A stretch of 40,547 nt of DNA from a virus. Taxonomy: Duplodnaviria; Heunggongvirae; Uroviricota; Caudoviricetes. This document shows positions 9,001-12,000 of the stretch, piece after piece (positions within the stretch are counted from its first letter, which is position 1; each line of letters starts with the position of its first letter). The position numbers are program-made. The DNA lies in the IMG/VR virus record IMGVR_UViG_2617270967_000014. One strand, written 5' to 3'.

Positions 9001-12000
9001 CTTCGGTACTTTCCGGTCCTTAAATACATTATTCCACGGAAATAATGAACAGACTGCCTGCAATGTTTTCCCTTCTGGTTTATTCGTATACGTTTTTGAT
9101 CCCGACTCCGCCGTAAACCTGTCCAGGAAAAATATGGGAGTAAGCACGCCCGTAACATTAACATTATTTCTGTTGTATATTGCAAAACCATATTCTGCCA
9201 ATGTCAGCCTCCGGCTCAGCTTAACCTGCCTATGCGAACAGCCAGGCGTCCGTTCTGGTCATAAACTTCAATTTTATCATTGCGGATCACCAGCCCCACA
9301 TTCTGATTAGAGTAACGAATTGTCAGTTGCCCTTGTGACGTAACACTGAAAAGGCCTCCAATATTCAGGTTACCCTGAGAATCAACCTGAAAGTTTCCGT
9401 TTTGAATAACGGCACTCCGAATAACTGGCGAAGTGATACTTCCCCCGGCTTTTCCCTCATCCGCCACAACCTTCCGCGACACCAGTGTTTCAATCACCGC
9501 GTCATAAATCATCGCTTTCGGGATCACTACCTTGCCACCTGATACCGCAAACGGATAGGCTGTGTTATCCGGATTATTCGGGTCAAAGACAAACAACTGC
9601 GACGCAGAAATTGCAACCTGACTTACAGGCCTGCCTTCACTGTCTTTTCCGGCGACAATCCCGATCCCCGCAGTGATGCCATCAACTCCCGCTTTTTTTG
9701 ACCACATCGCAAGGAAGGCCTCACCGCCTTCTTTATCCAGTTTAGTGATGCGCTTGTCGACCTCATTAAGCGATTCACTGGTTGACGAATCCAGTGTGGT
9801 TATGCGGGTTTCAATACCACCAATCGTTCTTGTCGTTTCCTCCCTGAGAGCCCCCACAACTTCGGTTGTCTTAATTGCCGCATCCTTTACAGCCTGCCCC
9901 TGCGCGTTTTTTATTTCTTTACGCAGCTCGGACACAACCGGCGACTTTGCAGCCTCATCGCGGATCTGGTCAATGATGGCCTTCACGCCGATCTGTGTTT
10001 GTGCCTGAGTGCCTTTTTCAGCATTCCATGGACCTTTCACTCCTGCCGCGTTAACAAAACGTATCCAGTAAAATCCCGACCAGCCAGGGTCAACCGGATC
10101 GCCGTAAACCTGCCCCGGCGTCGTGGCAACCAGCACTGCATCAGCAAGGTCATCCTCCGTACCCCGCCAGATTTCAGTCAGTGAATGTCCGCGATAATTA
10201 GGCATATCCCATTCAAGAAGAACCGAGCCAAATCCACCTGTCGCCTTAAAATTCAGCGGTTTTGTGGGAAAATCAACAGTCATTAAAGTACTGTCAATCT
10301 CAATACCCGGATTCAGTGCATATGAGGCACCACCCTGTGTACGACGTCGGGCAAGTTTAAGGCCAACCAGCTCTTCACGGGTCACAAAAGCATGACGACC
10401 GTCGCCACGCTGCCCGGTGCCAATTTCCATATTTTCCACAACAGCGGATAAATCCTTCCCCGCCCGCCACGGTTTTTTGCTCATATCGGTAACTCCGACA
10501 TCGATGTACTCAGGGTTATTCGTTCCACCTGCCCAAATCCGGATACCATCACCTGCCAGTTTTGCCCGGTTGCTGCCGGAAGTCTCACCACACTTCCCTT
10601 AAACGTACCCGGCGCAAAATGAATAACAGGAACATCATCAGCCATAACGGTGATCCCCACCCGCTCAGGTGCTGGAGATTTCACCCTGATACAGGAAAAA
10701 GAGGTTCTTTCAGGCAATGAAAAAATTTTTGAATGCCACCTTATCGTGGACGGCAGAGAGCCCCCGGCAAGCACTGACATTTTGTCTCCTGTCACCACGC
10801 GCATCATATCTTTTGCGAGATCAACCCATGCGCAGTCAAACGGTGTACTGAGATAGCGGATATCCACGGTGTCTGACGGCGTGGGTGTTACGCTGAGAAA
10901 AAGCATTTGAAGGTGGCAAAAGTCTGGAACCACGAGTCCGTTTCGTTTCTGCCAAATTTGCGCATTTTTCATCACAACCATCATCGCCTGAAGGCTCGTC
11001 ATGACTGGAGTTGCCGTCAGATTTCTGCGCACTTTTTTGATCATCAATTTGCGCATTTTTCTGCGCACTTTTCTCTGTATTTCTGGGGGAGTGTTTGCGC
11101 AGTTTAATGTACCGCCGAGCCGTGTCATAACTGATATTGTTCTGACGGCACCAATCCTGAAGCTTTATGCCGGTTTTGACATGTTCGCGTCGAAATGCCT
11201 GCTCCAGCTTTTTCCAGTCCAGCTTTGCCATGTCACCTTCTGACGTTCTCTGTTAAAAACTGATGCACAATGACTGCTGTAAATTTTCAGATTTCACACA
11301 GCAGAGCCATGTCTGATTAATGTTTAACCTTATTTAGGTTATATCCGCTTCATTCCACTACAGCACCAGATAGGCTGCCTCGCGGATAAATGCCAAAGTC
11401 TCCTGATATAGAAACCCGTCGCCACATCGAGCGCTGATCAACATTTGTATATTCACTGCGACAGAAAGAATTTATTTTATTGAATAGTTAGAAATACAGA
11501 ATTGCATGCTTTATAAGCATTGACGCACACTTCATTTTTAGCAATATATTCTGTTCTCATAGACGATCAGCCCTGCATGCACTGCCGGACACCGTCGGCA
11601 ATTTTACAGACCTAAGAGGCAATACCAAAAAGCTAACGCGCTTTATCAAGACTTGAGCAACCAACCAATAAAAAAAGCACCAGTACCGCTACCAATGCCC
11701 ATTTCGTCGTTGTTCACAGCATTCTGTGTACCCACTGTATTTCGCGTCATATCACCACGTCAGACAATCCTTAAGGATTACATAAGATTTACGCATAATA
11801 ATGCCCATTTTCAACACAGACAAGGGAATTTATATGTTAAATCAAACGCTAACAAAATCTCTTCTTATATTTTTACTTGTCATAATCGTTTCTGTATCCA
11901 TCATATACATTGTAAGAACTCCAGTCAGACTTGATGTGAACGATGTCACTGAGATTAACCAGAAACATCCCATTATTTTTCTCATCCGGCATGGGGAAAG

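Follow-up and report, generated by a model that had tools for sequence, protein, structure and literature searches.

The cryptic lambdoid prophages DLP12, Qin and Rac of Escherichia coli K-12 keep lysis genes, a remnant of the small terminase gene terS (nohD/nohA) and pieces of tail-fibre genes, while the intervening head and tail genes are gone; they are defective yet retained. To our knowledge, a terS endpoint common to different deletions has not been described for these K-12 elements. In the headful phages P22, SPP1, P1 and T4 the packaging site (pac) lies in or beside terS, and in phages of Staphylococcus aureus and in Salmonella P22 the terminase can cut pac in situ in the chromosomal prophage and package in one direction, which is known as lateral transduction. 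Gene 16 of T4, its terS, is said to hold a pac "recombination box" where short homologies recombine and gene 17 is amplified (the Hp17 amplifications), an activity that Wu and Black reportedly attributed in the 1990s to terminase at the packaging site. Deletions with one endpoint fixed by an enzyme cut are known from the Int-promoted b2 deletions of lambda, and the nicked origins of M13 and pC194 reportedly fix deletion endpoints as well, in work said to be that of Michel and Ehrlich in 1986. Here we analysed a stretch of 40,547 nucleotides (IMG/VR record IMGVR_UViG_2617270967_000014; hereafter the window) that carries a stx-negative, 933W-like (Sepvirinae) E. coli prophage integrated in ynfG. 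Its late region bears a deletion scar, junction B, whose terS endpoint recurs at the same nucleotide in ten distinct deletions of 3.8-31 kb with ten different left partners. The defective prophage itself is ordinary, and the recurrent terS breakpoint looks unreported; our literature search turned up neither natural prophage deletions with a terS nucleotide in common nor a mapped Stx-phage pac site.

The intact prophage of E. coli cM8a (L001), which occupies the same ynfG site and is 99.9% identical on either side of the scar, served as reference. Complete-genome searches covered 5,426 complete E. coli genomes (megablast of window positions 7000-13000, plus a second search rightward), none of which covers 7000-13000 in one piece; the cM8a match ends at window position 10866 and resumes from 10861, 13 kb further along. 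Blastn against the same prophage aligns window 1-6648 with L001 1139-7786, 6642-10866 with 19643-23867 and 10861-17531 with 37197-43867, which puts the junction within the 10.8-10.9 kb interval where an earlier note on this DNA had expected a deletion endpoint. The hexamer TATCCA present once at junction B occurs in the reference at L001 23862-23867 and 37197-37202 (parental contexts GCGGA-TATCCA-TGTT and TCGCG-TATCCA-CGGT), and 13,329 bp are missing (L001 23868-37196), a stretch with the remainder of terS, with terL, with the genes for portal, capsid, connector and adaptor, and with the long tail fibre gene next to its gp38-like partner. Because both truncated genes are complete in so similar a prophage at the same chromosomal site, we read junction B as a deletion scar, and the alignments show it as an illegitimate deletion that joins terS codon 124 to the last ~128 codons of an internal-virion-protein-like gene. 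Among the complete genomes, neither junction B nor the second junction of the window, junction A, was found.

What remains around the scar agrees in part with the earlier note. The terS-like N-terminal open reading frame (ORF) proposed there is upheld, residues 1-124 of the stub being identical to the 271-aa TerS of intact relatives and matching phrog_370 positions 1-133 of 284; the 131-aa stub protein is itself public in a few draft genomes (KDA79965.1 etc., e.g. E. coli 3-073-06_S3_C1). The ORF described as overlapping it out of frame does overlap terS, its first 87 codons being terS DNA read in another frame from an ATG at 11128 that the ORF finder reached through that DNA, but its C-terminus belongs to the truncated 541-aa gene: nt 10481-10866 are the last ~128 codons of this gene (phrog_511 "internal virion protein", whose positions 727-859 of 862 match residues 87-214; also phrog_26027), so that residues ~88-215 are native. 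The supposed C-terminal fragment of a J-like protein proved to be a full-length tail tip fibre gene, which matches phrog_496 across residues 1-422 and is J-like in one domain only (PF09327, phrog_31, lambda-J C-terminal-like). All these ORFs lie at the coordinates that had been given.

The absence of structural genes, also noted before, holds for every head gene, terL, portal and capsid included. Genes for the tail tube, the tape measure and tail assembly were likewise listed as absent, but they should not be called lost, since the intact relative is a short-tailed 933W-type prophage without them. No structural genes lie elsewhere in the element, as the window covers everything from the ynfG' attachment junction to the lysis genes. 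The immunity, replication, recombination, antitermination and lysis functions appear well kept without particle capacity, as proposed: the lysis, Q, nin, replication, cII and cI ORFs have reference length, the lambdoid regulatory layout is present, and the alignment to the reference is free of gaps from the scar to 28542 (99.9% over 10861-17531, 99.7% over 13028-28542). Although the core of the deletion-scar reading thus stands, the recurrent nature of the terS endpoint and the second deletion, at 6642-6648, had been missed. At this junction A the 8.4-kb LPD5/LPD38 giant gene is gone, together with a Panacea-domain gene and five small neighbours, and a DUF551 gene and a 133-aa gene are clipped. 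With both deletions, the gene content shows an inducible-looking element that would be unable to build particles. As far as sequence can tell, it is a defective (cryptic) lambdoid prophage, integrated at an attachment site, with its virion genes lost and its lambdoid regulatory layout kept.

The recurrent junctions were collected from complete E. coli genomes, IMG/VR contigs and metagenomes by scans with a retained-side anchor and by a search for the stub protein. Every one of them resumes at TATCCACGG, where the intact gene reads ...CGCG^TATCCACGG; the breakpoint is nt 371 of the 816-nt terS, in codon 124, and its counterpart in 933W (NC_000924) lies at ~nt 29137. Each microhomology starts at the same T and extends 1-6 nt rightward into the retained side, and one position, either between G and T or a base beyond, accommodates all ten junctions (Table 1). 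The microhomology lengths (6, 5, 5, 4, 2, 2, 2, 2, 2 and 1 nt) are chance-like. For the TOE17 junction, the intact partner sequence was located in strain 23CRST047.

Table 1. Features of the window and the ten junctions that share the terS endpoint. Positions refer to the window, or to the cM8a prophage where L001 is given.
Feature	Position	Strand	Description	Microhomology	Deleted
Junction of window	L001 23861 (partner)		541-aa gene	TATCCA	13.3 kb
Junction L040	L001 28608 (partner)		adaptor	TATCC	
Junction L039	L001 8612 (partner)			TATCC	
Junction TOE17			partner in ead/Ea22-like region	TATC	~31 kb
Junction L013/L019	L001 33375 (partner)		portal	TA	3.8 kb
Junction L033	L001 31312 (partner)		capsid	TA	
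Junction L080	L001 ~29963 (partner)			TA	
Junction AST198	L001 9437 (partner)		giant gene	TA	
Junction LZHX12	L001 6509 (partner)			TA	
Junction L036-38	L001 15444 (partner)		giant gene	T (plus G on left)	
Deletion junction B	10861..10866		one copy here; both parental sites in intact prophage	TATCCA (6 bp)	
TerS stub, 131 aa	10836..11231	-	124 native residues (to ...RHRGY) + 7 junction-encoded (PLSQYTV)		
Chimeric ORF, 215 aa	10481..11128	-	3' end of 541-aa internal-virion-protein-like gene + 87 codons of terS DNA in other frame		
Imperfect hairpin holding the breakpoint, ~40 nt	10856..10897	+	strand-asymmetric; break inside lower stem		
TGCGCA cluster	10959..11101		five hexamers in A/T-rich direct repeats, 98-240 nt from breakpoint, in retained terS stub		
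Tail tip fibre gene, complete, 422 aa	9216..10484	-	same 1269 nt as WP_032179793.1 in intact prophage; clear of junction		
Retained distal late genes	7433..9201	-	93-aa outer-membrane-protein-like (8920-9201), 208-aa membrane-associated moron (8297-8923), Ail/Lom (7433-8170)		
Deletion junction A	6642..6648		independent of B; missing relative to cM8a: L001 7787-19642	TCCGG(T/C)A (imperfect homology)	11.9 kb
Lipopolysaccharide core heptose(II)-phosphate phosphatase-like moron	11801..12415	+	PF00300, histidine phosphatase; between Rz and terS, opposite strand		
Lysis cassette	12496..14097	-	holin, lysozyme, Rz-like spanin; gap-free relative to intact reference		

The terS/lysis module is carried at an identity of at least 99% by 43 complete genomes, three of which have a truncated terS, all in ynfG and all at the same base, with different left partners; in those 43 genomes the 1.6 kb on the right of the site contain no other endpoint. 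Within the 60 nt to its left, 10 of 11 junctions fall on one base, the lone exception being L023. Both distributions argue against the search design as the cause of the recurrence. Had junction B been a one-off random illegitimate deletion at a chance 6-bp microhomology, with nothing special about the terS position, its ordinary-looking hexamer would need no further comment, and two deletions in these prophages, junction A and a second deletion of L013, are indeed ordinary events that do not involve the terS site. Ten junctions on the same terS nucleotide, five of them with only 2 nt of microhomology, make this explanation highly improbable, as does the fact that the microhomology starts with TA in nine of ten cases and with T in all ten, where chance would give 1/16 and 1/4 per event. 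The scar is real and its terS endpoint is non-random; we are confident, short of certainty, in this reading as a whole, with a site- and strand-specific break as the probable origin of the endpoint.

The exception, metagenome contig OJJG01000084.1 (L023, ~position 590), shares the left site of the window, but its endpoint in terS is shifted 23 nt to the left and shows a TATC microhomology. On the tail-fibre side this lineage has only 97% identity to the window, and GAGATA...TATCC is present at both of its parental sites. The deletion could represent a precursor state, an event that took place independently at a favoured site pair, or the trace of a second cut position about two helical turns off. 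Contig L041 (protein P0007) stops 3 nt before the site, where a draft-assembly contig ends, and it was excluded from the count. A scan of GTDB species-representative genomes for the anchor sequence returned no matches, and a protein search for further stubs in the 933W/P13374 terS lineage gave nothing new. Reciprocal deletions, in which the terL side would be kept and the lysis side lost, were found in 0 of 55 IMG/VR loci carrying the left anchor, and in 0 of 73 when every fetched left-anchor locus is counted.

Several of the deletions must be independent of one another, since L033 and L080 have divergent terS N-terminal regions and the 1,300 nt adjoining the site on its right fall into haplotypes that place truncated forms in at least four backgrounds. 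Two haplotypes contain truncated forms only. In one, a private single-nucleotide polymorphism is common to L013/L019, L036-38 and AST198, whose deletions are nested (33375 to 15444 to 9437); in the other, a private polymorphism is common to L039 and LZHX12, again with nested endpoints (8612 to 6509). These two series suggest that prophages already truncated were deleted again from the same anchoring base, though unsampled intact members of both haplotypes would explain the pattern equally well.

The geometry of the junctions bears on how the break arose. Because the microhomology always begins at the same T, where repeat slippage would vary both boundaries, the junctions point to a fixed DNA end whose last bases must pair. 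We infer a site-specific break at the terS position, and the fixed end would be the 3' end of the terS coding strand, 5'-...CCGTGGATA-3'. The likeliest source of this break would be the phage terminase, cutting or nicking at a pac site inside terS, an attribution that we make tentatively. By its published interpretation, 933W virion DNA may be terminally redundant, and 933W is capable of generalized transduction (PMC3752737), both being signs of headful packaging that starts at a pac site. The breakpoint lies where pac could be expected, inside the small-terminase gene of a phage type presumed to package by the headful mechanism. The breakpoint region and the C-terminal two-thirds of the gene are conserved across Stx-phage terS, and the N-terminal ~260 nt are variable. 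The TerL of the reference has weak similarity to the nuclease domain of T4 gp17; Pfam gave no match for TerS or TerL.

As proposed, the terminase would cut or nick at pac in terS, either in the integrated prophage or in phage DNA that is replicating. The unpackaged end, on the side of the lysis genes, would then be resected 5' to 3' by the phage Exo/RecE or by host nucleases, with the 3' strand kept to its last base; the prophage does encode Exo, Bet and a RecE-family exonuclease. Alternatively, the fixed 3' end might stem from a strand-specific nick. In either case the fixed 3'-OH would pair through its terminal bases with single-stranded DNA further inside the late region and be extended or ligated. 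As the determinants of cutting would lie on the retained side, the site could remain active and the late region be eroded stepwise and in one direction. A terminase acting at pac would thus account for the precise fixed end, the side that is deleted, the variable sizes and possible repeat events. The further proposition that the shared nucleotide is the pac cleavage site of 933W-type (Stx) phages, and terminase cutting a built-in directional engine of prophage decay, is possible, and we put it forward with somewhat more reserve.

The TGCGCA cluster of the stub lies on this retained side. The hexamer occurs 18 times in the 40.5-kb window, five of them in the terS cluster, within repeat families D1-D4. 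Speculatively, the cluster may be a recognition array for TerS; the repeats also encode a repetitive peptide linker (SAQK/NAQ) and may be mere low-complexity sequence. In the equivalent region, the 933W/P13374-type terS (L020, gene nt ~150-200) has a 12-nt GATCAT-containing unit in 1-5 copies, which encodes IDHE/IDHD peptide repeats. Such lineage-specific repeats could be TerS recognition elements or just a variable linker.

The breakpoint also lies within an imperfect hairpin, which offers an explanation that does not need the terminase. The plus strand of the intact gene folds at -11.5 kcal/mol (z -4.5), which none of 200 shuffles equals, and the minus strand is not significant; after the deletion most of the hairpin is preserved (-10.2 kcal/mol, z -3.8). 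Such a structure could stall replication or be cut by an SbcCD-like host nuclease, followed by microhomology joining or template switching, and the position of the break inside the lower stem and the restriction to the plus strand fit this picture. Moreover, most 933W/P13374-type loci sampled carry two mismatches in the lower stem, and their lineage has far fewer truncations, though this contrast is confounded by sampling, with ynfG residents on one side and Stx phages picked as viral contigs on the other. By an inferred comparison, truncation affects 1 of 45 loci with T, A or C at a variable loop position and 12 of 34 with G. A hairpin would also act in uninduced lysogens and in prophages without terL, which would fit the nested series. 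On the other hand, the palindromes at which SbcCD is known to cut are far longer than an imperfect hairpin of 40 nt, and a polymerase on the plus strand would meet the far side of the hairpin first, so that a stall would leave no 3' end inside the near stem. A structure-driven hotspot without terminase, the main rival explanation, is, in our judgement, unlikely, although it deserves to be taken seriously.

Other points weigh against the terminase as the source of the break. Cuts at P22-type pac sites are imprecise, and the endpoint here is precise to 1-2 nt. Late genes are expressed only upon induction, which is normally lethal; the events would consequently need abortive induction, leaky expression, or replicating DNA that was packaged by a helper and re-lysogenised. 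The truncated prophages lack terL, and the three complete genomes concerned hold no second copy of this terS type, so that stepwise erosion would need a past helper. The direction bias is statistically weak, with 3 of 52 IMG/VR loci truncated for the right anchor as against 0 of 55 for the left anchor. Moreover, we found no paper or phage record placing a 933W-type terminus at the site; no phage records or contigs start there, and the phi296-type records end inside terS ~425 nt past it. Finally, the partner sites show a weak excess of similarity on the deleted side (34 of 90 positions, 22.5 expected), which a one-ended model does not predict.

Weak similarity of the partner sites on both sides of the junction would suit a site-specific recombinase, a transposase or a HUH nickase that acts at terS and at degenerate pseudo-sites, or, in a variant, adjacent deletions mediated by insertion sequences (IS). 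One fixed endpoint with variable others and a common TA, the geometry of Int-promoted lambda deletions and of those at the M13 and pC194 origin nicks, and a CCGG-TA(TCC) motif found at several partner sites and at two junctions not involving terS all speak in the same direction. We nevertheless regard this as very doubtful: no IS or other insertion occupies the site in ~75 intact or 13 truncated loci, the reference prophage has no annotated serine recombinase or HUH gene, the attachment core (~TTTAAAG) is unrelated to the terS site, and the microhomology varies from 1 to 6 nt where a fixed crossover overlap would be constant. Int-mediated deletion was rejected because of the unrelated core. 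Consensus cleavage by RusA (which cuts 5' of CC) and by RuvC was tried as well, and neither fits, as the T after TA always comes from terS. Regarding the motif, CCGG-TA occurs at junction A and three other partner sites, and the reference site CTCCGGTATCCGG (L001 28608-28615) has been used twice, joined to terS in L040 and to a site in the portal gene in L013 (3518-3526). This double use could be chance, a stepwise passage from an L013-type to an L040-type deletion via the TAT repeat, or a sign of a preferred motif.

The endpoint might instead reflect selection on the protein, if the DNA-binding domain in TerS residues 1-124 were useful to the host, for example as a dominant-negative packaging blocker, and only deletions at the domain boundary survived. 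The break at codon 124 is compatible with this, as the C-terminal part of TerS matches a separate family (phrog_23182) from residue 134, and the stubs stay open reading frames in many strains. Protein-level selection would, however, tolerate endpoints several codons off and not fix one nucleotide; moreover, the stubs bear 0 to 48 unrelated extra residues and the late operon is silent in the lysogen. This explanation therefore appears to us scarcely credible.

Host ynfF opens the window, and a 5' piece of ynfG (2408-2491) abuts phage DNA in an arrangement identical to that of cM8a, AST198, TOE17 and LZHX12; the int end lies outside the window and is known only from the reference prophage. From ynfF the window spans the whole late region, with its genes on the minus strand, and reaches into the early-left operon. 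In cM8a the late genes run in the order terS (271 aa), terL, portal, N4-gp56-type major capsid, connector and adaptor genes, long tail fibre with its gp38-like partner, 541-aa protein, 422-aa tail tip fibre, two small membrane proteins, Lom, Hok and the 8.4-kb LPD5 gene. Short-tailed phages of the 933W/Stx group (Sepvirinae) have this layout, and the reference terS matches 191-222 Stx-phage records, including 933W, P13374 and VT2-Sakai, as well as phrog_370.

Between the ynfG' junction and the late genes, a plus-strand block of early type (2801-6684) holds antA/AntB, TraR/DksA, DUF4752, ead/Ea22-like and DUF551 genes. AntA/AntB is partly pseudogenised in the reference, and relatives of the ead/Ea22 and DUF551 genes (89-95% identity) reappear at the far end of the window (37900-39130). 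The block could be an accessory module or a tandem-prophage remnant. Past cII/cro, similarity to cM8a falls (28542-36761), with no match from 28.5 to 31 kb, after which identity is 86-92% across kil, RecE, Gam, Bet and Exo. Judged by this alignment, the immunity and early-left region is a mosaic module different from that of the reference.

No stx genes are present, the interval between Q and the lysis genes holding only a 636-aa DUF6645/SASA-family (NanS-p-like) esterase gene (14712-16622, minus strand), downstream of Q where Stx phages carry stx plus such a gene. A tRNA scan of the window found none, and promoter and terminator scans of it added nothing. The histidine-phosphatase moron beside terS is common to all relatives of the lineage, including the Stx2a phage OkiPb01701. 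By the reference annotation, toxin-type genes are kept as well, namely Hok/Gef by lom, RelE/ParE with a helix-turn-helix partner, and a Doc-family gene in the nin region (7060-7200, minus strand; 22002-22744, plus strand; 22795-23289, minus strand).

Taken alone, the scar makes one more defective prophage, of a common kind that hosts are known to retain. The recurrent endpoint indicates that virion-gene loss in a family that includes the Shiga-toxin phages starts at one defined site and not at random. Should this site be the packaging cut, terminase activity would be tied directly to prophage domestication, and a first position would be available for the pac site of the medically important Stx phages. 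The comparison of deletion scars could then map packaging sites to the nucleotide without virion DNA, and it might be predicted which prophage remnants remain mobilisable by helper phages. With a helper the site could refire and remove the virion genes step by step, while those for lysis, regulation and recombination would be spared, which would explain why cryptic prophages so often present lysis genes, a terS stub and tail-fibre remnants.

Considering the known systems again, the element resembles DLP12, Qin and Rac in keeping lysis genes, a piece of terS and tail-fibre genes while the morphogenesis block is lost. Unlike them, it is a short-tailed 933W-type prophage and sits in ynfG; its 99.9% identity to an intact copy shows it to be young, and its regulation, replication and recombination genes are full length. 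With 933W, P13374 and VT2-Sakai (Sepvirinae: Traversvirus, Oslovirus) it shares the terS family (blast matches over ~80% of the gene at ~92% identity), the reference gene order of terS, terL, portal, N4-gp56-type capsid, tail fibre, lom and giant LPD5 gene, and a NanS-p-like esterase between Q and holin. It differs from these Stx2 phages in having neither stx nor tRNAs between Q and the lysis genes, in its ynfG site, in a divergent N-terminal region of terS and in the deleted morphogenesis block.

For the breakpoint itself, the T4 recombination box is the closest parallel, as there, too, a short site in the small-terminase gene is joined to partly homologous sequences of the late region. The T4 products are tandem amplifications, selected in the laboratory in a lytic phage, whereas here deletions are fixed in natural prophages, with a presumed role for the terminase. 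The lambda b2, M13 and pC194 deletions have the same geometry, with an invariant endpoint at a cleavage site and variable second endpoints of little or partial homology; their sites are attachment cores or rolling-circle origins, while that of the window lies in terS, with no known recombinase or Rep protein. Lateral transduction shares the proposed starting event, a pac cut in situ with packaging toward the late genes and beyond. What is known of it concerns the contents of the capsids; what we propose, by analogy for 933W-type phages, concerns the fate of the chromosome end that would be left behind.

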